In this document: positions 17,877 to 42,715 of the stretch, piece by piece
Layout: every line of letters starts with the position of its first letter
Numbering within the stretch: position 1 is the stretch's first letter
Virus record (IMG/VR): IMGVR_UViG_2848581113_000005
Coordinates: 18,406 to 82,405 of that record
Length of the DNA: 64,000 nucleotides
DNA from: a virus
Taxonomy: Duplodnaviria; Caudoviricetes
Reading direction: 5' to 3' (one strand)
Notes under the pieces: model-generated
Database searches by the model: none
What the model was told of the DNA's origin: nothing
Seen by the model: the letters and a program-made list of their open reading frames with translations, nothing else
Translations under genes and position numbers: made by a program

Positions 17877-18452
17877 TTATTGCTGATCTTCCGCATAGAT
17901 GCCGGCTGAGATAATCGCCCCGCCAATACGGCGCTTGCCATAGCCCACCGGCACGGGATTCCCCTGTGCGATGGAGTTGACCGGTCCCCCAAAGGCATAG
18001 GACGGTTTATTGTCCGGATCTTCCCGTCGGGCCAGTCCCCCCGGCATCGGCGACAGCATCTGCACCACGCCCCCCAGCATCATCGACACCCCTGACATCA
18101 CCAGCGGCACCCCGTATGGCGTGGCCCACATAAACGCCCCGGCCACCACCATCACCGCCCCGAGGATAGTCTGAAAAACACCCCCGCGTTTGCTGCCAAT
18201 CACCACCGGGGCAATGCGGATGTCGTCCTCACCGGAAAATGCCAGTTCATCCCGGCTGATATTGCGTTTTCCGCTGAACACCGCAAAGGTCAGTCCACGC
18301 TCTTTCGCGGTCAGCAGGAACTTTTCGAAGCCGTCAATTAAGACAGACAGCGCCCGGATGGCTTCCCGGGGAGATGATACGGCCAATTGATACTCCCGCC
18401 CGAAGCGCGCACCGAGTATTCCGTATAACCGTATTATTCGTACTGTTTCCAT
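17877..18452 (-). CDS. Tail assembly protein I
   Basis: IRLYGILGARFGR...PSYAFGGPVNSIAQGNPVPVGYG. Confidence 0.92.
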   Translation of the reverse strand: METVRIIRLYGILGARFGREYQLAVSSPREAIRALSVLIDGFEKFLLTAKERGLTFAVFSGKRNISRDELAFSGEDDIRIAPVVIGSKRGGVFQTILGAVMVVAGAFMWATPYGVPLVMSGVSMMLGGVVQMLSPMPGGLARREDPDNKPSYAFGGPVNSIAQGNPVPVGYGKRRIGGAIISAGIYAEDQQ

Positions 18453-29924: not shown

Positions 29925-29962
29925 TTTGTTTCCTTCGGGTATAAAAAACCTCCCGAAGGAGG

Positions 29963-30721
29963 TTATGCAACGTTTGGATAAATGAGCTTCATCTGGCCTT
30001 TTATGTTGAATGCTGCCATGCACCTAGCTTCGAAGTCTTTATAATCAATACAACTTTTCGCAATGTTAGTGATCGCAGTCATTTGAGTACCAACAGAATG
30101 TAGCGCTTCATCTTTCAGGAATTGATGTATCTTTTCGCCACTGTCTTTTGCTGATTCTTTGGCTGCTTCATAGACATAATCAGGCAAAGCAACACCATAG
30201 ACCCATTTAGCCGTAATTTGCCCAAATAACGCAGGGCTGCCGCCAACATGACCAAAGTATGGAAGCCCAGTCATCTTTGATAGCGCTTGGTAATACGGTT
30301 CTTGGAATCGTTTTTCCCACGTTGTTGGTTCTTGGTAGGTTAATAGCCCGATAACCTGATCTTCTGTTAACGTCAGGTTCTGCGCCATCAGCATATTTTT
30401 GATGTGGCGGTCACATGCTCTGGCAAATTTAGGGGAGAGCCAGCGAGCGAATTCAATAACCAGTTCAGGATGAATCCAAGTACCGCCATAACGTCCTTTT
30501 TCAGTTCTAACTAAAAGACGGGAAATCCCGCCTTTAGAATTTATTGCTTCTATATCAAGTTCTTCACCAATTTCTTTTAAGTACTCTTTGGTTGAATCCA
30601 ATCTCAACCAATCAAATACCTTTTTCCCAAAATGCGTTGCAGCAGTAGTCGCATTAGCCCAACATTCGTTACTAAATGGAAATAGTTGTTCGTCGTACTT
30701 CATAGGGATTATTTTTGTCAT
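29963..30721 (-). CDS. KilA-N domain protein with a P63C-like C-terminus
   Basis: WANATTAATHFGK...WLRLDSTKEY...GGTWIHPELVIEFARWLSP; WEKRFQEPYY. Confidence 0.85.
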   Translation of the reverse strand: MTKIIPMKYDEQLFPFSNECWANATTAATHFGKKVFDWLRLDSTKEYLKEIGEELDIEAINSKGGISRLLVRTEKGRYGGTWIHPELVIEFARWLSPKFARACDRHIKNMLMAQNLTLTEDQVIGLLTYQEPTTWEKRFQEPYYQALSKMTGLPYFGHVGGSPALFGQITAKWVYGVALPDYVYEAAKESAKDSGEKIHQFLKDEALHSVGTQMTAITNIAKSCIDYKDFEARCMAAFNIKGQMKLIYPNVA

Positions 30722-30894
30722 CGTAAGTACCTTTAGGTGATAGAGTCTGTTCACGTAGGAATGAGCGACCCAAGACGGTACGATGACAACCATCGCCCAC
30801 CCTCAGACTCTATCCCTTAAGACTCTCGGTTTTGCGCCCGTGACAGCGCCAGAAATGAAAAAACCTCCACTAGGGAGGTCATTGAATGGATTGA

Positions 30895-31196
30895 TTATTT
30901 CTTATGCATGACTTCGAGTGACTTCATCTCCATTACCCGAATATCGTTAAATACGGTCGCCCTGTCTTTGATGTTGAGGTAATCCATGACCTGATTTAAT
31001 GGCGTGTAATCCAGCCCTGTCGCACCGTTCATACCTACGCGCCACTGTGTTCGCATGGCGCTGAACACGAGGTATGAATCCCAGATATCAGGCCACACCT
31101 CAACATCATATTCCTCGGGAATGAAGCCAAATGCCCGTTCAAAATCTGCGGCATCTTTTGCATTCATTCCTCCATACATGGATTCAGCGACCGCAA
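30895..31196 (-). CDS. Tail assembly chaperone, frameshift extension (gpT-like, DUF1799)
   Basis: TQWRVGMNGATGLDY; open in the -1 frame from the slippery site. Confidence 0.8.
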
Positions 31197-31499
31197 TCAG
31201 TTTTTTTCGCGATGACCCAATAATTCGTTGTAATACGTGGTCGTGATTGCCGTTGTAGCTGACGGGTAGTTGTCCAGCAGTAACTTGAGATTATCCACGT
31301 TATAGGGTTCTGCTATCGCCCAGTCAGCAATAATTTGCTCAAAAAAGGCCTGCGCGGGCATTTCACGCATGTTATCCAGCTCACTGATAGGTTTGTGATG
31401 AAAGGTGAAGGTGACAACCTCGGGGATTTCTTGCCCTGCGACGGGGATCTGAACATCTGCCTTGAATTTGGGGTTAGGAACGAGTGTAAACTTGGCCAT
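31197..31499 (-). CDS. Tail assembly chaperone (gpG-like)
   Basis: MAKFTLVPNPKFKADVQIP...REKN; ends GAA AAA AAC TGA. Confidence 0.85.
   Translation of the reverse strand: MAKFTLVPNPKFKADVQIPVAGQEIPEVVTFTFHHKPISELDNMREMPAQAFFEQIIADWAIAEPYNVDNLKLLLDNYPSATTAITTTYYNELLGHREKN
31200..31206 (-). other. Programmed -1 frameshift heptamer A AAA AAC
   Basis: XXXYYYZ just before the stop; the -1 frame reads LIAVAESMYGG into the next ORF. Confidence 0.8.
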
Positions 31500-31539
31500 C
31501 TAAAAAATCCTCAAAAGAAAAGCCCCAGAGGGGCTAACA

Positions 31540-32199
31540 TTATTCTGCATTGGTATAAATCTGCATTTCTGATTTAAGGGAAAAGCGGGCGGTGACGTTT
31601 TCTACTTCATTCATTGCCGTATTGGGTACACGCTGGAACGAAACGGAAGCAGTGTAATAGCGGTCTTCTGCGGCACGTTTGTTGTAGAATCGAATGGCCG
31701 TGATTTGCTTACTGTCATCCAGCCTCATCAGTAACTGACGAATGGGCAACTTAGCATCATGCGCAAAGGTATAGACCTGAACGACTCCATTTTTATAGGT
31801 GTCGATGGTTTCTGCCTGTTCGTCTTCCAAAAACTGAACTTCCTGCGTTTGCTGCTCGCCGCCCTCGGTTGAAAGCGTCATTACCTGTGGCATGACTTCC
31901 CAAGCCAGTACTTTCTTCAATGATCCCGCTCCACCTCCCGCAGGAAATACATTTTTATCTGAGGTGTCCAATCCCTCAAGCGTGATACTTTTTTCAGTCA
32001 CCGTTTTGACACGATATACGCCAGAGGCTTTCTTCCAGCCAGAACTGACATGAACGATATCTCCCTTAGTAATACCCGCAGCGGAGTCTGGTGTTAGCAC
32101 AACTTCTTCTGCGTTAGATGCTGCGGAGAATTTCACTTCATCCCCGTATTTGCTAGCAAGGTAAACACGGGAACCATTGGGAATGTTATAGGCCATCAT
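31540..32199 (-). CDS. Major tail tube protein
   Basis: YNIPNGS..., SNAEEVV, FPAGGGAGS, GGEQQ; position in the tail module. Confidence 0.88.
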   Translation of the reverse strand: MMAYNIPNGSRVYLASKYGDEVKFSAASNAEEVVLTPDSAAGITKGDIVHVSSGWKKASGVYRVKTVTEKSITLEGLDTSDKNVFPAGGGAGSLKKVLAWEVMPQVMTLSTEGGEQQTQEVQFLEDEQAETIDTYKNGVVQVYTFAHDAKLPIRQLLMRLDDSKQITAIRFYNKRAAEDRYYTASVSFQRVPNTAMNEVENVTARFSLKSEMQIYTNAE

Positions 32200-32242
32200 T
32201 AACCTCTTTTATGCATAAAAAAAGCCGCTATCGGCGGCGGTA

Positions 32243-32644
32243 TTATCGAACTGAATCACATCGGTATGATGTACGTATGGGAAGGGTGTAGTTAGTGCCA
32301 TCCTGAATAGACGGAAAAAGAGCTGGCTCATCGTTAAGGTATAAATCATCAGCTAATGACAGGCCGTTCTGTAAATAACCAGTCACCCGGTCAGCAATCT
32401 GCATTAAGACAGCATCACCTGAGCCAGATTTACCAACAACATTCATCTGAATCACGCCACGAAAGACAGGCATATCTAGCGACAGTCCGATATTTTGCGG
32501 TGTCGCAGGCATAATATGCAGTTGCAGATATGTCTCATTAATGTCATCAAACGGCATGTTGGGCCACGCCACCTTGAGGCTTTCCCGCTTGGCTATGTTT
32601 GCAACCAGCCTTCGAATAGCATTATTTATCGCTGACTGATTCAT
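32243..32644 (-). CDS. Tail terminator-like protein
   Basis: VAWPN, RGVIQMNVV; upstream of the tail tube gene. Confidence 0.75.
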   Translation of the reverse strand: MNQSAINNAIRRLVANIAKRESLKVAWPNMPFDDINETYLQLHIMPATPQNIGLSLDMPVFRGVIQMNVVGKSGSGDAVLMQIADRVTGYLQNGLSLADDLYLNDEPALFPSIQDGTNYTLPIRTSYRCDSVR

Positions 32645-33222
32645 GGTTTTGTCTCCGTCACTGCCTCGCTAAAGAATTTCTGGAATTCCTGTGCGGTGAC
32701 GGCGATCATGCCATTGGGCGCCTGTGTTGAGTGCCCCATTTCAAGACGATAAGCATAAGGAACAACATTGGAGAAATAGACAGCTTTGACACCAACCTTA
32801 AACTGCCCAATCACCAACTCCCCCACGGCTTTGGTCATAGTGCCACTTTTATCAATGCGTCCGGTTTCTTCCGTCGGGATATCATCAAAGGTGACCTGCC
32901 AGTTACCCCGGAATCGACCGCCGGTATAACCCGGAGGTGCTTTGATATCCATAGAATCCTGTGAGCGAGCGCGTTTCTTTAGCTGCCGTTTTTTGGGTGT
33001 CAGATTACTGGGGTCTGAACGCTGATGTTCATTCCAGTCATGAACCGCCTGATTGTATTCTCTCGCCGTTTGGTTGATTTTCCACAGTTCGGGATTCCCC
33101 ACCGGTGACATGATAACCAATCGCGACAGTATCTTGATAAATGCCCCTCTTGATGCCGCCTCAATATTACCTTTGGCTTTATTCACAAACGCATCAATGG
33201 ATGCCATAAACGGATCTGCCAT
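32641..33222 (-). CDS. Neck/tail completion protein (HK97 gp10-like)
   Basis: SPVGNP, GGRFRGNW, PYAYRLEMGHSTQAPNGM. Confidence 0.8.
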   Translation of the reverse strand: MADPFMASIDAFVNKAKGNIEAASRGAFIKILSRLVIMSPVGNPELWKINQTAREYNQAVHDWNEHQRSDPSNLTPKKRQLKKRARSQDSMDIKAPPGYTGGRFRGNWQVTFDDIPTEETGRIDKSGTMTKAVGELVIGQFKVGVKAVYFSNVVPYAYRLEMGHSTQAPNGMIAVTAQEFQKFFSEAVTETKP

Positions 33223-33223
33223 A

Positions 33224-33577
33224 TCACGCCCTTAACTGAGATTGATAACACAGCACGATATCAGCAGGCTTGATTGGGTTAGGCTCAATAATCCTCAGCC
33301 AGACTTCATCCACCAGCACCAAATCGCCTTTAGCTATCTGAGTGTCTGGAGAAAAGACCATCTTGATATCCGTAGACAACACTAAAGAGCCGTCAATTTC
33401 ATTAGGGCTATATCGAGTCTTTACACCGACAACATTAAATTGACTCTCCAGTTCGTGATGCTCTTTGCCCTCATCATCAACCCAATGTCGCCCGGCACGC
33501 TTCACCTGAAATTGAGCGCCATATTTTTTCAGTAATCGCTCAGTCGTTTTCTGCATTCTGGGATAGAAAGCTGCCAT
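33224..33577 (-). CDS. Head closure protein
   Basis: RLLKKYG, IDGSLVLSTD; synteny. Confidence 0.7.
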   Translation of the reverse strand: MAAFYPRMQKTTERLLKKYGAQFQVKRAGRHWVDDEGKEHHELESQFNVVGVKTRYSPNEIDGSLVLSTDIKMVFSPDTQIAKGDLVLVDEVWLRIIEPNPIKPADIVLCYQSQLRA

Positions 33578-33578
33578 A

Positions 33579-34061
33579 TCACCCCCTGAATACTTTAAAT
33601 GTCATCCCACCACCGGATAAGAAATCACGCAGCATTGAGTTAAACCAAGTGATGTTTGGCGAGCCCGAGTTAGTGCCCTCCGCATACGTGACCGACACAG
33701 CCCCACTCACGGATTCAGACAGTACCTCACCACCCACCGTAGGCGTTAAATCGTGTTCCAACGAATCGATCGCCAGCCGACACTGAGCATGAGTCAACGG
33801 CAGAGGAATAGCATCATCTGGCACTAATTCCCCATCAACATAAATTCCTTTACGCGGGAAAGCCAACGACTGATTTTTATTGGTTCGGTTTCCTTTCCAA
33901 CGCTTTGTTGCCAGATAATCCATCGCCTGAAACAGCAACGACGGCAGAACGCTATCATCCGGCAGGGTATAACCTCGCTGAACGGCAAACTGCTTTAAGT
34001 CCTCAACACTGGCGTAACTATTGAAGGTTGGCGAGTGTTTATCGGCATCAATCATGTTCAC
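33579..34061 (-). CDS. Head-tail adaptor protein
   Basis: NSYASVEDL, AMDYL, QSLAFPR, VSVTY. Confidence 0.75.
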   Translation of the reverse strand: MNMIDADKHSPTFNSYASVEDLKQFAVQRGYTLPDDSVLPSLLFQAMDYLATKRWKGNRTNKNQSLAFPRKGIYVDGELVPDDAIPLPLTHAQCRLAIDSLEHDLTPTVGGEVLSESVSGAVSVTYAEGTNSGSPNITWFNSMLRDFLSGGGMTFKVFRG

Positions 34062-34095
34062 CTCAAAAAAATAAAGGGGCAGATGCCCCTATTTG

Positions 34096-35106
34096 TTATT
34101 GACCGTCGGCCGTATTCTTCCCTTTACTACCAGAAACAGGTTTACCACTTAACACTGCCGCGAACGGGACGTTTTTACGGTCAAACTTACGCTCCCAATT
34201 AGTCGCTTTGGCAATATCAGTGATTGACGGGGTTTTGTTTGGGTCTTCCTCACCCAACCAACTGAAACCAGCGGGTTGCAGGATAAAGGTTTTGCGTTCC
34301 CACAATACCTCAGCCCCACCTCCATTACCGCCTGATGCCTTACGGTCTAATTCAACCGGGGTATGAGGATTACCGCTGCCGTAACCAAATGCACCACCGC
34401 CGAAGAAAACAGTCAGATAGCGCCCATCTTCATATTTCAGGCTGTCATCCATAAACAGCGGCTTGCCCAGATAGGTTTGCAAAATAATACGGCCTTCCGA
34501 ATCGCGAATGGTTTCAATCAGGTTCTTGGTCGCCATCTGTTTCATAACCACGGAGTGGACACCGATAGCGCTGAATGTGTCGGCGGCATCACCGGCTGTA
34601 AATGCCGCGTCAATCAGATTGTCGGCTGAAATTTCATCACCACCTTGGATCACCATGTCGCTACCATCCTTCGCAATGTTACTGCCGATAATCCCACGTG
34701 CAGTACCAATCAGATAGCGTTGCCATTGGCGAGTCCAGTAGGTCCCGAAGCGGTTACGGATATGCGCCATGGGTTCACTGTTTGCCAGTTCTGCGGCCAA
34801 GTCCGCCACACCGTAGCCTTTGTTCAAGAATAAAACGCGTGTTTTCAGACTGGATTGACTGGCTTTCCCTACCGCACCGATTTGGTCAGGGTTATCCGAG
34901 GTTGCATTAGGCGCTTCATTTGCGTCTAAATCATTCCAGTAGTTGATCGTTGCTGTTCCCTGACTATCAGAAGCAATAGCGTCTAATTGAGGCAGGCGAG
35001 TAATGATACCAGATTCAAATACAGCGGTTTTTTCCGGGCTGTTCACCGGTGCAATGGCTTGATAATAATCACCACGAAAAATATCGGATAAACGAGTTGT
35101 TGGCAT
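34096..35106 (-). CDS. Major capsid protein
   Basis: TTRLSDI, YWNDL, YWTRQWQ, NWERKFDRKNV; follows the scaffold gene. Confidence 0.88.
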   Translation of the reverse strand: MPTTRLSDIFRGDYYQAIAPVNSPEKTAVFESGIITRLPQLDAIASDSQGTATINYWNDLDANEAPNATSDNPDQIGAVGKASQSSLKTRVLFLNKGYGVADLAAELANSEPMAHIRNRFGTYWTRQWQRYLIGTARGIIGSNIAKDGSDMVIQGGDEISADNLIDAAFTAGDAADTFSAIGVHSVVMKQMATKNLIETIRDSEGRIILQTYLGKPLFMDDSLKYEDGRYLTVFFGGGAFGYGSGNPHTPVELDRKASGGNGGGAEVLWERKTFILQPAGFSWLGEEDPNKTPSITDIAKATNWERKFDRKNVPFAAVLSGKPVSGSKGKNTADGQ

Positions 35107-35123
35107 AAATTGATACTCCTAAT

Positions 35124-35828
35124 TTACTGAGTTTTTTGGAGGCGTTTAAATTCCTCGGGATCTTCATCAAATAAACGGATGCGTTCAGCTTCCGTATAGT
35201 CGTGCCAAGTTCTACCGCCGCCCCGAGCAACAGTCTGGCGCTGACCTTCACCTCCGGTTCCGGTCGCTTTACTGCCGATAACAACAGGCGCAAACAGCTT
35301 GTTGCCACGAAATTCTTTTTCTAAATCGTCAATAGTGAGTGCTGACGGCTTGCCTTCCGCATCAATCACACGCGTTTTTCCCTCTTCAACAATGAGACGT
35401 GATTTGATATGAGGAAGAAGTAACGCTGCACTGTCACCCGCCAGTTTCGCCGCCAGAGACTGCGCCACGTTATCCACCAGCAAGGTGCGCAAATTGCCGT
35501 CTTTTTCGTCGAGTTGGGCTAACAGTTCTTTTTCACGGGCAGAGAGTTTTTCGGCCCAGCTTTTTTCCAATGCTTCAATGTCACCGTTCTTGCGGGCTTG
35601 TTCCTCAGCGGCTTTCTTTGCGGCCTCTTCCGCCTGTCGGCGTTTCTCCTGCTCCGATTTCTTTTCAGAAAGCAGCTCATCCACTTTTTTTTGCAGACCG
35701 GAGACATCGGGAATGTCTGGCATCCCTTCAATATGCAACTGATATTGATCGCCCTGCGCTTTGTACATGGCTTTTTGCTCATCCGTTAGCGCCTCAAATT
35801 CTTCTTTCGTTAATAAAAATTTAAACAT
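35124..35828 (-). CDS. Scaffolding protein
   Basis: Coiled coil SGLQKKVDELLSEKK, GDIEALEKSW, SKATGTGG. Confidence 0.75.
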   Translation of the reverse strand: MFKFLLTKEEFEALTDEQKAMYKAQGDQYQLHIEGMPDIPDVSGLQKKVDELLSEKKSEQEKRRQAEEAAKKAAEEQARKNGDIEALEKSWAEKLSAREKELLAQLDEKDGNLRTLLVDNVAQSLAAKLAGDSAALLLPHIKSRLIVEEGKTRVIDAEGKPSALTIDDLEKEFRGNKLFAPVVIGSKATGTGGEGQRQTVARGGGRTWHDYTEAERIRLFDEDPEEFKRLQKTQ

Positions 35829-35914
35829 CGTCAACCTCAGGTTTTGATGATGCAGTCGCTGACTGCGGGTAATAAAAAAGGCCACCGAAGTGACCTTATG
35901 ACCATGTTAGCTGA

Positions 35915-37035
35915 TTAGTCATAACCAGCTTCCCTGAATGCTTGTCCGTCAATCTCTTTCAGTTTCGCCAGTGAGATAAACTCGCCCTTGTCTGTATAGA
36001 ATTGCGAAGGATGCATACCCCCTCTTGCATGAGTCGGTAGCGCACTTCACCAAAGACTTGCTTTTGTCTCCATGCAGGTTGCCGCTGTATCCATTCAAGA
36101 AATGTCGTTTCGGTGGGCACTTGACCATCCATTGATGCTCGAGTTCCTTCGTTCATTTCATCAACATCAATGCCAAGTTCGCGCCAGGATTTCACGACCA
36201 ATGTTTCGATTGAGCGACAATTAAAATGAAGTTTACCGGGGCCTTGCAGATACGGAACTTTGTGACCGATAGGCTTTCCATTCAGCGTATATTTAAGTCC
36301 GTCACGCACAATGCAATCATGGGAAGTTTTATTATCTAGCGTGGACACCCAGCACTTGCAATCCAGAATAGCTTTGTTGGCTTCAACAAACTGATTTCTT
36401 GCCGTGGCTTGTAAGTGATTGATGGCGGTCTTGGCGATACTAGTCGCATTGGCCCGGCTAATTTGCAATGCGCCATCTTTGTAACCCTGATTAGCATGAC
36501 CGCGTATTTTTCGCCCTATGTCTACCGCACTCTCCCCGTTAAGGTAACCCTTACGTACCGTGTTATTAATACGGGCCATCCGATCTTTTTCCAGCCCCTC
36601 CGCCCATTCAGACAGTAATTTGCCTTGGAAGGGGCGAGACATCACCGAAGAATACAGCATATCTTCTGTGATGCTCATGAGCGGGTACTGCCTGAGTACG
36701 GCATTAGGCAGCAGGGAATCAAATAAAGAAGGATAGAAACTAATCTCATAACGAACGTGTTCCAGCATTTCACGAGACAACACTGACAGTGCATTATCGA
36801 CAGCATTTTTATTAATTACCCTGACGCTGAATAGCAATGATTCTAATTTTCGCACCGTAAAACTGTTTGCATCCATGTTTGTGTCATCCAGTGCCACTAT
36901 TAACGAGGCAGTTAACTGTGCATCAAACTCATTCAATGCCTTAACCACCCGACGCGCAACACCTGTTGAATAACGCCCAGAAAACAGGGAATGTGCAATC
37001 AACTCATCCATGATGGTTTCGTTGATGGATTTCAT
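35915..37035 (-). CDS. Minor head protein (SPP1 gp7 / Mu F family) with a 1-bp frameshift near the 3' end
   Basis: WVSTLDNKTSHDC, HFNCRS; one extra G at 36018-36022 gives ...EGGMHPSQFYTDKGEFISLAKLKEIDGQAFREAGYD ending at 35915. Confidence 0.8.
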
Positions 37036-37039
37036 TTAT

Positions 37040-38416
37040 CTACCCCAGCATGTCAGGTTCTTTATTTCGGAGTTGATCTTCGATAGCCTCCGGCAATTCG
37101 TCCTGTGGAACAATGTTGATGCTTTGCAGGTATCGAATGAAATCGACCTTACGCATTTCGCCAGACTGGACAGCAGATAGCAGCGTGGAAATGGCCGCAG
37201 AATCAAGCTGGGCAATGTCATAGACTTTGTTCAACTCAATTGTGGCTCCCCCTGCACCAGCGAATTGAACGCAGAACTGGAGCGCCCGGCTAAATGCTTG
37301 TTCAACATTGCCGGCACATAGCGATAAAATGGAGTTATCCGTCTGCGCCTCGTTTTGTGCCTGTGTAGCTGTTCGTGCCGATGTGCCGCGCTCCACCAGT
37401 TTAGCCCCCAGCATGGCCATCTGCTTTTCCCGGCGCTCAGCTACGGTGATTTGGATATTGCGCTCTTCAGGTTGGGCGAATTTCATATCACCGTTTGGCG
37501 GCAGCAATATTCCATTACGTGACCCCACCGTAAAGCCATCAGAAAAATATTTATCCGCCCATACTTCGGTCAGTCCCGTCAAGGCCACCATCGGCTGCCC
37601 TACTGTATGGGCTGATTCTGCAATATCGGCTTCAGCCTGATAATGTTTGATATTCACATAGGCAATATCCGCCAGTGGTGGTGCATCCGGTGTGTGATCA
37701 TTGTTCATTGAGCCTATCCATGACCACGGCAATTCAAATAATGGCTGACCTGTTGCATCTTTCAGTTCCACCCAGTCATGCGCAATCAAATTGCCGTCCT
37801 GATACCAGTGTCGTGAATATGCCCGCCCCTCAATGAGCCTCAACTCAATCCAGTGATCAATCAGTTGCAAATCAAAGTTATCCGTGTCCTTCGGCTCTTT
37901 ATAATGCACCACCACCAGCGATGTTTTCCCGTTGGTCACCCGCCAGTTAATAATTTCCTTGGCGGTAAATAATCGGATATAGGGGCGTCCTTTTTCAGCC
38001 TCTGATTGAATGCCCGAACCAGAAAAATCACTCAATAAACCTGCTCGCCCGCGCTGTAATACTTGGGATAACGCATCGCGTATCATCTGTGTTAATGGCT
38101 GGCCTTCACCATCAATATCCGTTTCCAGATACTCAATGCCCCCGGAGATATCAATTTTGACGGGTTTATTGAATGCAATACCCAATAACCCACTCAGGGT
38201 GCGCCCCGTCGCGTTGATAAATGACGCCCGGAGCAAATAACGCTCATAGCGCTTATTACTTGCATCATCCTTCTCTTTCTTATCTGCCGGATGGGGCAAG
38301 TACCTTTCTTTCCGGCTCTTAATCACCCGTTCGCCATCAACACAATCGCCGATCATGTTCCATTCTGACAAAAACTCGGTGTAGGCCGGATGTCTGTAAT
38401 CAACGTTTGTGCTCAT
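37040..38416 (-). CDS. Portal protein (DUF4055-type)
   Basis: YERYLLRASFINATGRT, PPLADIAYVNIKHYQ; directly after TerL. Confidence 0.88.
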   Translation of the reverse strand: MSTNVDYRHPAYTEFLSEWNMIGDCVDGERVIKSRKERYLPHPADKKEKDDASNKRYERYLLRASFINATGRTLSGLLGIAFNKPVKIDISGGIEYLETDIDGEGQPLTQMIRDALSQVLQRGRAGLLSDFSGSGIQSEAEKGRPYIRLFTAKEIINWRVTNGKTSLVVVHYKEPKDTDNFDLQLIDHWIELRLIEGRAYSRHWYQDGNLIAHDWVELKDATGQPLFELPWSWIGSMNNDHTPDAPPLADIAYVNIKHYQAEADIAESAHTVGQPMVALTGLTEVWADKYFSDGFTVGSRNGILLPPNGDMKFAQPEERNIQITVAERREKQMAMLGAKLVERGTSARTATQAQNEAQTDNSILSLCAGNVEQAFSRALQFCVQFAGAGGATIELNKVYDIAQLDSAAISTLLSAVQSGEMRKVDFIRYLQSINIVPQDELPEAIEDQLRNKEPDMLG

Positions 38417-38417
38417 G

Positions 38418-39989
38418 TTAGTTCCAGTTGAAATTGAGTGTTTTTGTGAAGCGCAGAGGCTTATGCAAGACGCGATACCGTGTCGCATCCCAATCGTGAT
38501 CTTCCTGCTCGGTGTCAACATCATCAGAATTTTTAGTGTCACGAACTAAAACAGGAACGCGACTAATCCAACCCCGGCAATGGTCGAAGACATAGAACGC
38601 AGGTTTTTCTGGCATACCTGATTCTGATTGCTTACCTTCAATGACCGCCTCTAACATGTCAGCGAAGAGGGACGCACCATTGATACGAGAGCCGGGGTTT
38701 TTGTTTGCTTTCACCCATTCGACTTTTTGTGCCTCCATTTTTTGAGCTATGGAATCCTCATCGTCGTTCGGTGTATAAATTGAGTTATCAGCGGGTCCCT
38801 TTATCACCGTCTTACAAATGCCGGGCATAATATTAAGCTGGCCTTGTGTTTTGCCCTCTTTGACTATTTCATCGGGGATCGTTGTCTCTAACCCAACTAA
38901 GCGCTCATCAATCCACTTAATACCTTTCGCAACATTGGTTGATGACATGCTCAACCCTTTGTTTAACTCATCAGGTGGACAACCGTACCATTCTCCAATC
39001 AAAATTAATGATCCTGCTGGTGGACAAAATGTACGGCCATTAGACAAGGTTGCTTCTGTGCCGTCTGACTCAGCCCACCACAAATTAGAGAAAGGCTTTG
39101 ATTCTCCCCAGTCGTGAGAGCGATCAACCGTCCAGCTATCCGGAATTTTGAATGGCTTGATAACGTGGTAATTAGCATTCCACAGATGGTCAAAGCGTCC
39201 GCCACTGGTAACATCCCATGAACCCTCAACCCATGCCTTTCTTCGGTTTGGGTCTTTAATGCCCATCAACGTTGCGATGTACTGCGGGTCTAGGTAGGGG
39301 TTTTCTTTAAATGATCCGTGGATGGCTACGCGAGTTAGCGTGATATCTTCGTCTCGCTCAGTCTGTGGATTGAAGACCTTCTGAGTCTCACGAATAACCG
39401 TTCCACGCGGCGCAGGTTCGATAAACCGTTTCTTAACCCATGTGTGACCGATGCCAAACGGGTTTGTTGTGCTGAAAGTTTCCAATGGGATCGGTTTTAA
39501 CAAAGAGCCGTCTTCAAGTGGGTAATCCTCCGGCCTGAATGATGAGCGGCGACAAGAGAACATGGCTTCGTAAAAGTCGGCTGATTTCTGTTTGGTTAAT
39601 TCGTTAAAGCCGATAAAAGGGAATTCCTGCCCGTGATAATCCCAATAATCATCGGCTTCTTTGCCGAACCGAAATAACAACTCTTCACCTGTCGGCCATA
39701 CCCAACGTAATTCTGACGCCGAAGCCAGAAAGCGAGCACCATCTTTAAACAGGCGATACATACGCTTTGATTGGGTAATGATGTCAGCGAGGTTTTTATA
39801 TTCCGTATCGAATATCACCCCACGCCAGAATGAACCATAGCCAACACCGACATTGCGCCGGAAGCGTGCGAGCTGTGCCGCTGTTTTACCGGGTCCTCGT
39901 GTGCCTTCATACAGAATTTCGTTACACGGGCAACTTAATGATAACGACTGTGAGCCGGGCAGCGGTTTCCAAACCACATTGTAATTCAT
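38418..39989 (-). CDS. Terminase large subunit
   Basis: GTRGPGKT Walker A, IGFNELT Walker B, TTNP, DWGESKPFS, EDHDWDATRY. Confidence 0.93.
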   Translation of the reverse strand: MNYNVVWKPLPGSQSLSLSCPCNEILYEGTRGPGKTAAQLARFRRNVGVGYGSFWRGVIFDTEYKNLADIITQSKRMYRLFKDGARFLASASELRWVWPTGEELLFRFGKEADDYWDYHGQEFPFIGFNELTKQKSADFYEAMFSCRRSSFRPEDYPLEDGSLLKPIPLETFSTTNPFGIGHTWVKKRFIEPAPRGTVIRETQKVFNPQTERDEDITLTRVAIHGSFKENPYLDPQYIATLMGIKDPNRRKAWVEGSWDVTSGGRFDHLWNANYHVIKPFKIPDSWTVDRSHDWGESKPFSNLWWAESDGTEATLSNGRTFCPPAGSLILIGEWYGCPPDELNKGLSMSSTNVAKGIKWIDERLVGLETTIPDEIVKEGKTQGQLNIMPGICKTVIKGPADNSIYTPNDDEDSIAQKMEAQKVEWVKANKNPGSRINGASLFADMLEAVIEGKQSESGMPEKPAFYVFDHCRGWISRVPVLVRDTKNSDDVDTEQEDHDWDATRYRVLHKPLRFTKTLNFNWN

Positions 39990-40480
39990 TCACCTAATAC
40001 CCCGCCCTGTTGCTGTTGTGCGACTTTTTCCCAATCATCCACGCTGTCACATGCAGGAACGGGCATAATGTTGTGCGTCGCCTCAACTTTCTGCTCTACC
40101 TTGTGTCTGTTGGTATAAACATCCCCACACTCTTTTGCGGCTTGCTCAGCTAATTGTGCAGTTAGCGCAAAATTACGCATGCCCTCAGCTTTAACCGCCA
40201 TTCGGTCTAGCATTCTCAAACGGTAGGCTTTATTCGCTATGGGGATGTCTGTTATTTCGGTTTGGAATCGTTCACGGGTTTCATTAAAAAGCTCTACCCA
40301 CTTTTTCGCTAATTTACGCCCACTTGACTTTGTTGGGTCATGAGATTCGACTTGCTGGCGGCTCACTTTTAACCCAAATTCATTTTTGACGGACTCAACC
40401 ACTTGGGAGGGGGTATCATAGCAGGCAAGGGATTGAATAATATAAATTTTAACCTCTGACTTTAACGCTGCCATAATCAA
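39986..40480 (-). CDS. Terminase small subunit (DUF2280)
   Basis: IIQSLACYDTPSQV, HDPTK, IPIANKAYRL. Confidence 0.85.
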   Translation of the reverse strand: MIMAALKSEVKIYIIQSLACYDTPSQVVESVKNEFGLKVSRQQVESHDPTKSSGRKLAKKWVELFNETRERFQTEITDIPIANKAYRLRMLDRMAVKAEGMRNFALTAQLAEQAAKECGDVYTNRHKVEQKVEATHNIMPVPACDSVDDWEKVAQQQQGGVLGE

Positions 40481-40504
40481 TACCTGTCAAAACTAGTCAA
40501 AAAT

Positions 40505-41167
40505 TTAAGCCAGTTTCATTAAACAGGTTCCGCACGCTCTGGATATATTCAACCTAGCCACTTCTGGCTTTTCGCTTGCGGCATCAATGATTGCTTGAAC
40601 CTCTTCACTAGCGCCATATCGACGAACAACGCCGACAAACTCTTCTACATCATGCCCTCTTAATTTCAGCTTGGGCATACCTTCCTGTGTGAACTTGGGT
40701 GCGCCAAATTCATCCATATCTTGTGCTATATGGTAAAGCTCATGATCGACCAATGCGCAAAACTCAGCATCAGAACATTGAGCGCAGTAATCAGCCGCTA
40801 ATGTGATAACAAACTTAGGTATGCGACCAAACCATTCATACATTTGTTGTTCCATTCTGGCTTTCTGCCAACCACCAGCACGCATCATGACCTCTTCACA
40901 TTGACCTAGTACATACCGACCTTTCTTATTGAATGAGTTTGAGGCCCACATAAAACAAATATCAGCATCAATTAAGTGCATATGATCAGGATTATGAATA
41001 TCGCCATCATCGTCGAGTAGATGCTGCTGTACCCACTCATTAACCTCTGGGGCGGGGGCTATTTTTATGTGCGGAGAAAATGCTTCGATAAACTCATGTG
41101 GTGGATATGGCCTAGCTAATGCTTCATCACTCATAACTTCCTCAATCAGAACATTTAACTGGCTCAA
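40505..41167 (-). CDS. Putative phage metallopeptidase
   Basis: LVDHELYH (HExxH) and HDVEEF. Confidence 0.8.
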   Translation of the reverse strand: MSQLNVLIEEVMSDEALARPYPPHEFIEAFSPHIKIAPAPEVNEWVQQHLLDDDGDIHNPDHMHLIDADICFMWASNSFNKKGRYVLGQCEEVMMRAGGWQKARMEQQMYEWFGRIPKFVITLAADYCAQCSDAEFCALVDHELYHIAQDMDEFGAPKFTQEGMPKLKLRGHDVEEFVGVVRRYGASEEVQAIIDAASEKPEVARLNISRACGTCLMKLA

Positions 41168-41499
41168 TTTATATTTTGATAAACACTTCCGCTGAAACTA
41201 CCAGAATCAAGATCAGAGATAGATTCAATTACAGCATTGACAGCATCCGAAAAAGGAACGGAGAAAAATTCATTGTGTAACCAATAACTCTCCAGTTTTT
41301 TATGTGCCATTTTTTCAATAAGCCTGTAATCAAATCGCCTCTCTGTTACAAAGCTTTCGATAACGGAAAATCCAAATTTTCTTTTTAATTCAGCAAATCT
41401 TCCCAAGCATTTTCCACGAGCAGACATGCCGACTTTTACCTTAACGCCATCAGTGGCAACGTAAATTCGACCACCTCTATCGGCCTTCTTCTTTCTCAT
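41164..41499 (-). CDS. GIY-YIG / T5orf172-like protein
   Basis: GRIYVA...VKVGMS...IEKMAHKKL...NEFF. Confidence 0.7.
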   Translation of the reverse strand: MRKKKADRGGRIYVATDGVKVKVGMSARGKCLGRFAELKRKFGFSVIESFVTERRFDYRLIEKMAHKKLESYWLHNEFFSVPFSDAVNAVIESISDLDSGSFSGSVYQNIN

Positions 41500-41742
41500 A
41501 ATGCTTTCCTTTAGGTGGTAAGCCTAAGTTCACGCGGATATAGCAGTCCACAGAGTTAAAGCAATGCTGCTTACCCTATAGACTCATCTCGTGAGGCTCT
41601 GTGTTTGAATAGCCCGTGACGGGCAGATTGAGAAATAACTAATTGGATTAAATAAAGACCTAAACGAGACCACTACCACCAAAAACCTACACAAAACTCT
41701 ATCAAGCAGCCTCAAGGAAGCCGCTTTGTAGCATTTTGTAAA

Positions 41743-42285
41743 TCAGCGATTGCTTATTGATATCCAGTCCATTTGGCCTCTTTCTTCTATCTGAGCAATC
41801 TGATTCAATAACTGCGGCTTCTTCTCTCTTCCCCAGCGACGAAGTAGACGACCTGACATACTGGCCACATCTTTTTCTTTCATGTATTCCAGCATGACAG
41901 CATTGCGCTCTTGTTCCATTGAGTGGATATTCTTCTTAATAACACCAGCCATCCAGTTAAAGGCTGCAATGAAAGCCTCTTTGAATCTAATAGCCTCCGC
42001 GCCAGTAAATCCCATGACTAACATCATCCACCCATCTTTAGTCATCCGATAGAATGGTTGTGGTTTGCCGTTCTGTAACTCGTTGTTTTCATGGCAAAGC
42101 GTAAAATTGCGCTCTGCAAATTCAGATGAACAAGACTTGATAACAGAACGCGTTTTTCGCAAAACATCCTTATGCTCTCGCTTAAAAACTTTCGCCACTT
42201 TAAATGTATCCGTCTCTGTTTCCTGTCCAGACATAAAAACCAAATCACGAAAATCAATTCCGTTTACTATTGTTGGGTAATTCAC
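41743..42285 (-). CDS. Rha-family regulatory protein
   Basis: VAKVFKREHKDVLRK, YRMTKDGWMMLVMGFTGAEAIRFKEAFIAAFN. Confidence 0.9.
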   Translation of the reverse strand: MNYPTIVNGIDFRDLVFMSGQETETDTFKVAKVFKREHKDVLRKTRSVIKSCSSEFAERNFTLCHENNELQNGKPQPFYRMTKDGWMMLVMGFTGAEAIRFKEAFIAAFNWMAGVIKKNIHSMEQERNAVMLEYMKEKDVASMSGRLLRRWGREKKPQLLNQIAQIEERGQMDWISISNR

Positions 42286-42715
42286 GATGCTTATCCTTAA
42301 CTTAGGTAATGAACCTTTGCCGCATAGGAGATCAGCCCATCGAGTAGCATCAGTTTTAGCTGATTTCTCAAAGGCTCATTCCTAAATAAAGGCTCGATGT
42401 TTAGATTAGCGCTGCGGTGCGCGATGAAATGCAGATATAAAAATGCCACCAGCCCGTGTGCGTTGGGTACGCGATAGGTACGGGGTGATGACATGGGTTA
42501 TTGCTTTAACCACTCAAGGGAATGGGTAAAGGAATAATTACCTATTTTTAATTAAAGTGTCACCAATCACTCTTATTCGTCTTTGAGCGTTGGCTTCTTA
42601 TGTATCATTATTTTTCCCTAAAAAAATTTCTGTATTTTGTGAATTAGGAAATTCCAAATTTGTTCCCATTACATACAATTTAATCTCTTTTTCTTTTATA
42701 TTTAAGGAGATAAAT

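Follow-up and report, generated by a model that had tools for sequence, protein, structure and literature searches.

Why should three accessory genes of one phage, encoding a KilA-N protein, a T5orf172 protein, and a Rha protein, each begin directly behind a leader of about 130 nucleotides with the same pseudoknotted fold? The question is raised by a 64,000-nucleotide stretch of DNA, here called the window, which covers positions 18,406–82,405 of the IMG/VR virus record IMGVR_UViG_2848581113_000005. The source record is an 82-kb provirus, and the phage is a lambdoid siphovirus whose late genes lie on the minus strand in the order holin, Rz, Lar, Rha, T5orf172, metallopeptidase, terminase, portal, capsid, tail genes, and tape measure. 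The three elements, E1, E2, and E3, are read on the minus strand, which is the sense strand, and their 3′ ends fall exactly at the start codons. An earlier note on this DNA had placed them from the sequence alone, and its positions hold to within a few bases (30722–30853, 41500–41628, and 42286–42426). The elements are structured cis-regulatory leaders of a real and widespread kind, and they constitute a new RNA family of a familiar functional type. We propose, with a probability of about 0.6, that the leader is a closed double-pseudoknot lock, or gate, on the Shine-Dalgarno (SD) sequence; both the repression of translation and its relief are what we infer from the fold. The leaders and their genes are as follows (R1 and R2 are the covariance models described below):

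30722..30853, minus strand: leader E1, whole, 5′ of the KilA-N/P63C gene (R2 match 30719–30853, 43.5 bits, E = 5.9e-8)
29963..30721, minus strand: KilA-N and P63C gene, 252 residues, ATG at 30721 (PF04383, 6.5e-20; PF10546, 2.3e-11)
41500..41628, minus strand: leader E2, whole, 5′ of the T5orf172 gene (R2 match 41497–41628, 46.1 bits, E = 1.4e-8)
41164..41499, minus strand: T5orf172 (GIY-YIG-like) gene, 111 residues, ATG at 41499 (PF10544, 1.9e-8)
42286..42426, minus strand: leader E3, whole, 5′ of the Rha/ORF11CD3 gene (R1 123.2 bits, R2 88.9 bits, with E3 in both training sets)
41743..42285, minus strand: Rha and ORF11CD3 gene, 180 residues, GTG start at 42285 (PF09669, 3.5e-24; PF10549, 1.3e-20)

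Fold of the leaders

The leaders share a common plan from the 5′ to the 3′ end. A hairpin (P0) is followed by an A-rich linker, the 5′ strand of the second pseudoknot (PK2), which abuts an anti-SD sequence of the CCUUU type, and then helices P1 and P2. The P2 loop of about 25 nucleotides ends in the 3′ strand of PK2 and the dinucleotide GG, after which the P2 3′ strand, a bulge of 5–8 nucleotides that is the 3′ strand of the first pseudoknot (PK1), the P1 3′ strand, the SD sequence paired with the anti-SD, and the start codon complete the element. One long helix, formed by the anti-SD:SD duplex and P1 and continuing into P2, is thus crossed by two pseudoknots: PK1 joins the P0 loop to the P2/P1 bulge, and PK2 joins the linker to the P2 loop.

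Every pairing that the earlier note had named is present in the three elements. The outer stem is GAUAGAGUCUG/CAGACUCUAUC in E1 and AAUGAGCCUUUG/CAAAGGUUCAUU in E3. PK1 is UCACG/CGUGA in E1 and E2 and CCGCA/UGCGG in E3; PK2 is CACAGAG/CUCUGUG in E2, CAUCGAG/CUCGAUG in E3, and CCGAGA/UCUUGG, with one G·U pair, in E1. The outer stem of E2, assigned by homology from its row in the test alignment A7 described below, is UGAGUCUA/UAGGCUUA; the same row identifies the E2 pairing GGUAAGC/GCUUACC as a competing pairing and not the P1 of the family. The hexamer TTAGGT (ACCUAA on the sense strand), at which the elements had been said to start, is real in E1–E3 and is not conserved across the family in A7. 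The strands occupy the following positions, all on the minus strand:

30834..30850: E1, P0 hairpin, GGCGC...GCGC
30839–30843: E1, PK1 5′ strand UCACG, in the P0 loop
30824..30829: E1, PK2 5′ strand CCGAGA, in the linker
30804..30822: E1, anti-SD UCUUAAGGGA, then P1 5′ strand UAGAGUCUG
30793..30802: E1, P2 5′ strand
30770..30775: E1, PK2 3′ strand UCUUGG, in the P2 loop
30758..30768: E1, P2 3′ strand
30751..30755: E1, PK1 3′ strand CGUGA, the bulge between P2 and P1
30730..30749: E1, P1 3′ strand CAGACUCUA, then SD region UCACCUAAAGG
41612..41624: E2, P0 hairpin, GCCCG-UCA-CGGGC
41615–41619: E2, PK1 5′ strand UCACG
41597..41603: E2, PK2 5′ strand CACAGAG
41567..41596: E2, anti-SD region, P1 5′ strand, and P2 5′ strand together
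41579–41586: E2, P1 5′ strand UGAGUCUA
41567–41576: E2, P2 5′ strand GGGUAAGCAG
41549..41555: E2, PK2 3′ strand CUCUGUG
41536–41546: E2, P2 3′ strand
41530..41534: E2, PK1 3′ strand CGUGA
41519–41526: E2, P1 3′ strand UAGGCUUA
41507–41518: E2, SD region
42409..42422: E3, P0 hairpin, GCGC-ACCGCA-GCGC
42413–42417: E3, PK1 5′ strand CCGCA
42393..42399: E3, PK2 5′ strand CAUCGAG
42359..42392: E3, anti-SD CCUUUAUUUAGG, P1 5′ strand AAUGAGCCUUUG, and P2 5′ strand AGAAAUCAGC
42338..42344: E3, PK2 3′ strand CUCGAUG
42326–42336: E3, P2 3′ strand
42320..42324: E3, PK1 3′ strand UGCGG
42308–42319: E3, P1 3′ strand
42295–42306: E3, SD region CCUAAGUUAAGG
30780–30802, 41559–41576, and 42349–42368: competing P2 and alternative hairpin region of E1, E2, and E3 (A7 columns 73–101)

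The P2 5′ strand is complementary both to its distal partner, with which it forms P2, and to a proximal stretch of the P2 loop. The two pairings are mutually exclusive, and each of them covaries (0 of 5000 permutations), so that the competition reflects either a switch or a folding intermediate.

Three natural variants lack P0 or carry a degenerate P0 (L014:714–841, L102:1368–1497, and L022:2867–3003). The P0 of L014 has been removed by a deletion between direct repeats, and in L022 the Rha open reading frame (ORF) is cut to 27 residues. P0 and PK1 may be dispensable or may be lost early in decay.

Covariation and strand

Alignments of the leaders made with MAFFT (A1 and A2) left the helices out of line, and RNAalifold recovered only P0 and P2 from A2; iterated covariance models were therefore built. 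Model R1 was constructed from six close relatives. Model R2 was rebuilt from 40 leaders of Rha, P22_AR_N, and ANT genes, a set that contained neither E1 nor E2 nor the leader of any other KilA-N or T5orf172 gene. In a search of 220 kb, R2 nevertheless detects E2 (46.1 bits) and E1 (43.5 bits), with both matches ending at the start codons, which places the two elements in the same family as E3. The window contains no further R2 match at E ≤ 1. The fold z-scores of E1, E2, and E3 are −2.88, −2.81, and −3.30 on the minus strand and −3.35, −0.93, and −1.28 on the plus strand.

The test alignment A7 comprises 62 rows, 60 of them distinct, and 37 pairs with 2098 pair cells; it was fitted to the model, so its pair counts lean towards the nested helices. 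Standard pairs occupy 93.7% of the cells compared with 72.3% in shuffled alignments, and 34 of the 37 pairs exhibit compensatory changes on both sides. None of 500 shuffles attains any of the observed measures, and pairing falls to 31–46% when the partners are slid by one to three columns. The pairs of P0 are 99.1% paired.

Counted in fixed columns of A7, PK1 is 92.7% and PK2 90.2% paired; however, the pseudoknot strands sit in unpaired columns of the model and are partly out of register, and counting from fixed anchors was dropped. The pseudoknots were evaluated by an alignment-free comparison of the duplex energies of cognate and non-cognate regions in 27 representatives with less than 80% identity:

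PK2: cognate −10.7 kcal/mol, non-cognate −7.3 kcal/mol, 0 of 5000 permutations as low
PK1: cognate −8.6 kcal/mol, non-cognate −4.7 kcal/mol, 0 of 5000 permutations as low
anti-SD:SD: cognate −7.4 kcal/mol, non-cognate −4.7 kcal/mol, 0 of 5000 permutations as low

All 27 representatives form a PK1 of 5–8 base pairs and a PK2 duplex of 5–10 pairs at matching places with varied sequences; those seen in PK1 include CCGCA, UCACAC, UCUCAC, CGCCC, UUCCGC, CUCACC, and UCGUAC. The cognate test and the A7 counts agree on the compact RNA with two covarying long-range pairings that had been deduced from three copies, and its small size and rich covariation make the double pseudoknot a good target for structure determination.

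The strand of the folded molecule, which had been considered ambiguous, can be assigned. The paired columns contain 120 G·U cells and 26 A·C cells, and this excess identifies the sense-strand RNA, that is, the messenger RNA leader, as the molecule that folds. The end of every copy in the family at a start codon and the sense-strand RNA observed in phage P22 (PMC13397905) point to the same strand.

The Shine-Dalgarno sequence is paired in the outer helix

The location of the elements next to the ribosome-binding site, pointed out in the earlier note, is a property of the fold itself, in which the SD sequence is one strand of the outer helix. The anti-SD:SD duplex is present in 27 of 27 representatives. 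In some members, such as those of P22 and L016, it forms 18–21 continuous pairs together with P1. In a folding model restricted to nested pairs, the mean probability that the SD is unpaired is 0.14 in native leaders. Shuffling the part of the leader upstream of the SD raises it to 0.46, and in 25 of 28 representatives the native leader has the lower value.

The leader RNA is present in phage P22

Naaz et al. (Noncoding RNA 2026, PMC13397905) reported P22F, an 89-nucleotide small RNA encoded on the plus strand of the P22 genome (AF217253, 21301–21389). Its level is 2054 reads per million (RPM) in infected cells and 926 RPM in vesicles, and Table 2 of the article gives 2724 RPM for sar and 1513 RPM for oop in infected cells. 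P22F is listed there with "no known function", its ends were set by an "80% of reads" rule, and the entries for P22F in the supplement show only identical copies in P22-like phages.

By its coordinates, P22F maps to L002:2550–2638, which reads as the sequence in that table and lies inside the R2 match at L002:2504–2646 that precedes rha in P22, to which E3 is homologous. It is therefore encoded by the same genomic stretch and strand as the P22 leader. The RNA begins with the first P1 nucleotide and stops five nucleotides short of the ATG at L002:2644, so that its 5′ end is inside the outer helix and its 3′ end lies between the SD and the AUG. The leader RNA thus exists in P22, and its P1–P2 core accumulates (PMC13397905). 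The passages on P22F in that article describe neither pseudoknots nor pairing of the SD, a wider family, or an association with particular genes; the leader family gives P22F a structural and evolutionary context. Among the functions considered in the earlier note, that of a leader protected from ribonucleases (RNases) would fit the fragment.

Distribution of the family and downstream genes

A blastn search of a phage collection with E3 matches 75 records, including P22, where the match is just 5′ of rha; the same search with E1 and E2 yields no match. R1 detects a leader before 79 of 80 Rha loci from IMG/VR. R2 detects one before 41 of 43 KilA-N loci, the two misses having less than 60 nucleotides of upstream DNA, and before 19 of 21 Rha loci in bacterial genomes. 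Phages HK639 and Bas106 are matched, as is the Stx-type phage P13803, which carries two copies, before ant and Rha. A large structured-RNA family that is missing from Rfam is thereby added to phages of enteric bacteria, with P22, Stx phages, and HK639 among the model phages.

An RNA-first search at E ≤ 1e-4 covered 151 genomes, each representing a species, from the family to which the Enterobacter genome G003 belongs. It gave 68 matches in 40 genomes, so that roughly one in four of those sampled in this enterobacterial family carries the leader. Under strict filters, matches occur in 7 of 151 genomes of an order-level sample and in 0 of 150 other genomes of a class-level sample. With the filters off, R2 has no match at E ≤ 1 upstream of Rha in one Acinetobacter phage and one Pseudomonas phage, and only a chance-level match about 590 nucleotides upstream at the Rha locus of a Vibrio phage (9.7 bits, E = 0.7). 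The protein from a bacterial genome that is nearest to the Rha of the window is from Xenorhabdus bovienii (95% identity).

The downstream genes of the 30 best of the 68 RNA-first matches encode Rha (14), KilA-N (5), Bro-N (4), TerB (2), ANT (1), P22_AR_N (1), a weak Rha match (1), and a 60-residue protein of no family (1), and one match is followed by no start codon; R2 was trained mostly on Rha leaders, and the proportions may be skewed accordingly. Among all the collected loci, the downstream Pfam families are Phage_pRha with ORF11CD3 or ANT, KilA-N with or without P63C, P22_AR_N, Bro-N, ANT, T5orf172, and, once, an HNH endonuclease. The three genes of the window, which had been called unrelated, therefore all belong to one guild of antirepressor-type DNA-binding proteins that the leader accompanies across the family. 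According to Iyer, Koonin and Aravind in 2002, these domains reportedly belong to one network of DNA-binding modules that have been shuffled among phage "antirepressor-like" proteins. The leader ties Rha, KilA-N, Bro-N, ANT, P22_AR_N, and T5orf172 together through a proposed shared post-transcriptional control, and makes the regulation and timing of these genes testable.

The leader is a module independent of the ORF that follows it. The leaders of an ANT gene and a P22_AR_N gene are 97% identical, and one KilA-N leader has 85% identity to a Rha leader and only 70% to the nearest other KilA-N leader. Because near-identical leaders precede different classes of genes, control by the encoded protein is disfavored.

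Three further observations concern individual loci. One genome of the family-level sample (G173) contains 12 copies of the leader; five of them have the same score (97 bits), pointing to either several related prophages or recent amplification of a cassette. In L234 and L235, the leader precedes a gene for a 142-residue TerB-domain protein, outside the antirepressor guild. In Acinetobacter phage Ab105-2phi (L203, KT588075), Bro-N and Rha genes lie just before the tape-measure gene, a placement like that of KilA-N in the window, and are not matched by the leader model; these genes may use a leader of another kind.

A proposed lock on translation

The fold suggests a mechanism in which the leader is transcribed as a cis-acting part of the late read-through messenger RNA of the phage and would fold into a closed form. 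The outer helix would pair the SD with the upstream CCUUU-type anti-SD, PK2 would link the P2 loop back to the linker strand that abuts the anti-SD, and PK1 would link the loop of the 5′ hairpin to the bulge between P2 and P1. As the 5′ strand of PK2 runs into the anti-SD and PK1 fills the sole bulge between P1 and P2, the two pseudoknots together may clamp shut the long helix that holds the SD. Antirepressor-type cassette genes could in this way be kept at low or conditional translation despite their position in heavily transcribed late operons. The lock would be opened by processing, a protein, an RNA, or a ligand, and the P1–P2 core may be sufficiently nuclease-resistant to accumulate as a small RNA, as P22F does.

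Several observations weigh against this proposal. The nested model does not predict the SD to be hidden in 3 of 28 representatives, and the alignments used for the pair counts were fitted to the model, which biases them towards structure. The conserved, mutually exclusive alternative hairpin is not explained by a simple static lock. Strongly conserved unpaired nucleotides are few, and conservation is mostly found at helix ends, which provides no pointer to a particular opener; for this reason no ligand or protein can be proposed. Finally, the 3′ end of P22F lies between the SD and the AUG, and if cleavage truly occurs there, P22F could have arisen by decay or could act in trans instead of testifying to a gate.

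Alternative explanations

The strongest alternative to the lock, possible but distinctly less probable, is a true switch, in which the leader would act as an aptamer like that of a riboswitch or as the operator of a single trans factor shared by all copies in a phage, which would thereby be co-regulated as a regulon. The factor could be a small molecule, a phage or host protein, or a small RNA that recognizes the common three-dimensional shape. The retention of the architecture while helix sequences diverge, the three divergent copies in one phage, and the covariation of the alternative hairpin are consistent with a switch, and the occurrence of the same leader on different proteins argues for a shared factor over autoregulation. 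Integration host factor (IHF) is stated in PMC4936722 to "regulate[s] the rha gene"; inspection by eye revealed no conserved match to an IHF site in the leader DNA. However, conserved unpaired nucleotides are scarce, the downstream genes are not metabolic, and the gene context names no ligand or factor. Moreover, the alternative hairpin alone would probably not free the SD, since the helix of P1 and the SD is independent of P2. In its boldest form, which we regard as tentative, the leader would be a shape-specific sensor for the whole antirepressor-type guild, and one signal late in infection would open all the copies in a phage. The signal could be a metabolite, a host or phage protein, or the processed core of the leader itself, whose two exposed pseudoknot strands would then act in trans. 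Such a sensor would define a post-transcriptional regulon of genes that manipulate the repressors of co-resident prophages or host defenses.

It is rather unlikely that the main product is instead a trans-acting small RNA, the P1–P2 core of the P22F type, whose exposed pseudoknot strands pair with targets such as the 5′ part of new leader transcripts, as proposed for IsrK of Gifsy-1. P22F, at 89 nucleotides and 2054 RPM, has a level similar to those of sar and oop, and an IsrK-like role is suggested in section 2.4 of the article (PMC13397905). Because P22F starts at P1, without P0 and the linker, the 3′ strands of PK1 and PK2 would be free. Nevertheless, the element always abuts a start codon and pairs with the SD, neither of which a free-standing small RNA needs, and it is not followed by a terminator. 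The ends of P22F, set by the "80% of reads" rule in a size-selected library (PMC13397905), may be those of a decay intermediate.

A self-cleaving ribozyme, or a signal for processing by an enzyme such as RNase III or RNase E that cuts the cassette messenger RNA from the late transcript, is very improbable. Several classes of ribozymes typically have double-pseudoknot folds, both ends of P22F are defined (PMC13397905), and the continuous helices of P22 and L016 are of a length that RNase III can cut. However, no ribozyme model of Rfam matches the elements even at E ≤ 10, and an invariant unpaired core is absent. The ends of P22F are also not staggered in the manner of RNase III, as the partner of its 5′ end is L002:2623 and its 3′ end is at 2638.

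A single-stranded DNA structure that moves cassettes as an attC-like recombination site, an idea to which the cassette behavior of the leader and gene and a faint likeness of TTAGGT to the attC core lend some appeal, can, like the single-stranded DNA structure raised in the earlier note, be practically discarded, because the G·U excess favors RNA of the sense strand, the sequence duplicated at the insertion junctions is a terminator hairpin and not the leader, the SD and start codon belong to the fold, TTAGGT is not conserved in the family, and the RNA has been observed in P22 (PMC13397905).

Comparison with known RNAs

The 4227 models of Rfam 15, which include those of twister, pistol, hatchet, HDV-like, Alpha_RBS, isrK, and the preQ1 and SAM classes, yield 0 matches at the gathering threshold over the whole window. 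At E ≤ 10, the three leader regions give only chance-level matches to snoRNA and lncRNA models, none of which lies on the elements. The comparison with Rfam proposed in the earlier note thus reveals no identity with a characterized family. A full-text search of the literature returned no description of the family, and the report of P22F (PMC13397905), in the parts of it that concern this RNA, is the nearest.

In the IsrK/anrP system of Gifsy-1, the translation of an antirepressor-type gene is likewise tied to a structured RNA of the same locus (PMC13397905, section 2.4); however, the leader matches no Rfam model, isrK included, and has a different architecture. The cIII messenger RNA of phage lambda and its RNase III-sensitive N leader are similar in that alternative folds or processing set the accessibility of the ribosome-binding site, but they are unrelated to the leaders in sequence and fold. 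The preQ1-II and SAM-II riboswitches also bury the SD in a pseudoknotted fold. By contrast, the leaders have no Rfam match and no core resembling a ligand pocket, and they precede phage regulators rather than metabolic genes.

In phage T4, the ribosome-binding sites of late genes and homing-endonuclease genes (e, soc, and I-TevI) are hidden by simple leader hairpins, which are opened when the late transcript starts inside the hairpin. The leaders resemble them in that folding of the read-through transcript conceals the SD of an accessory or selfish gene that lies within an operon. They differ in being 130-nucleotide double pseudoknots and in lacking an embedded promoter of the T4 type, as a scan for sigma-70-like sites found none within E1–E3. 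A single sigma-70-like site is found at 42563–42534, upstream of E3, which is below the chance expectation.

The alpha-operon leader of Escherichia coli is a nested double pseudoknot around the ribosome-binding site of rpsM and serves as the operator for ribosomal protein S4. Like the leaders, it encloses the ribosome-binding site in a double pseudoknot, through which the initiation of translation is controlled, as is conjectured for the phage family. However, the leaders match no Rfam model, and near-identical ones precede different proteins, which makes autogenous control unlikely.

The attC sites of integrons carry conserved R″ and R′ cores (GTTRRRY), lie 3′ of the ORF in their cassette, and are accompanied by an integron integrase. 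The leaders do not qualify as attC sites, since the TTAGGT-like hexamer is not conserved in A7 and the element is 5′ of the ORF and includes the SD. No integrase is detected by Pfam among the 23 ORFs at 27–45 kb of the window.

Leaders and genes as cassettes

The suggestion that the leader travels with its gene as a cassette is supported by three relatives (L168–L170) that lack the stretch of E1 and KilA-N. They are homologous to the window as far as position 30858 and again from 29963 onward. A hairpin with the sequence ACCTCC-loop-GGAGGTTTTTT occurs once in these relatives, and in the window it flanks the insert on both sides:

30862..30880, minus strand: left copy of the duplicated terminator-like hairpin, next to the 5′ end of E1
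29943..29962, minus strand: right copy of the hairpin with a T-run, which immediately follows the KilA-N stop codon and has the same sequence as the single copy in the insert-free relatives

Since the hairpin is single in the relatives and doubled in the window, the leader, the gene, and one copy of the hairpin together constitute an insertion cassette, which is flanked by the genes for the tail chaperone and the tape measure. Of 28 representatives, 24 have a terminator-like hairpin with a U-run 7–38 nucleotides upstream of the leader; in the window, one was detected before E1 but not before E2 or E3. The leader can serve as a searchable marker for accessory-gene cassettes in prophages.

The junction between gpT and the tape-measure gene is a hot spot for insertions. 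Locus L166 has an insert of about 800 base pairs without a leader at this junction (2083–2880), and L167 has an additional segment of about 690 base pairs (2085–2774) ahead of the unit composed of the hairpin, leader, and KilA-N gene.

Cassettes are also shuffled at one site, as is evident from a comparison of the window with a close relative (L128:561–696 and 1372–1503). Upstream of its T5orf172 cassette, this relative has a KilA-N cassette that carries a leader of its own and occupies the place of the Rha cassette of the window.

Reading frames that overlap the leader

A 65-residue ORF on the minus strand (42297–42494) runs through E3, has no Pfam match, and is most likely spurious. An upstream ORF from the AUG that is frequent in the P1 5′ strand was considered and rejected, because it stops after three codons in E3 and is absent from other subgroups.

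The annotated starts of rha in P22 (ORF201) and HK639 fall inside the leader, in the P1 5′ strand. The start that is shared with all rha homologues coincides with the end of the RNA model, and the annotated N-terminal extensions of both proteins are probably wrong. Their gene starts can be corrected accordingly: in P22 from L002:2575 (NC_002371, 39575) to L002:2644 (39644), 23 codons downstream, and in HK639 from L205:1465 to 1501, 12 codons downstream.

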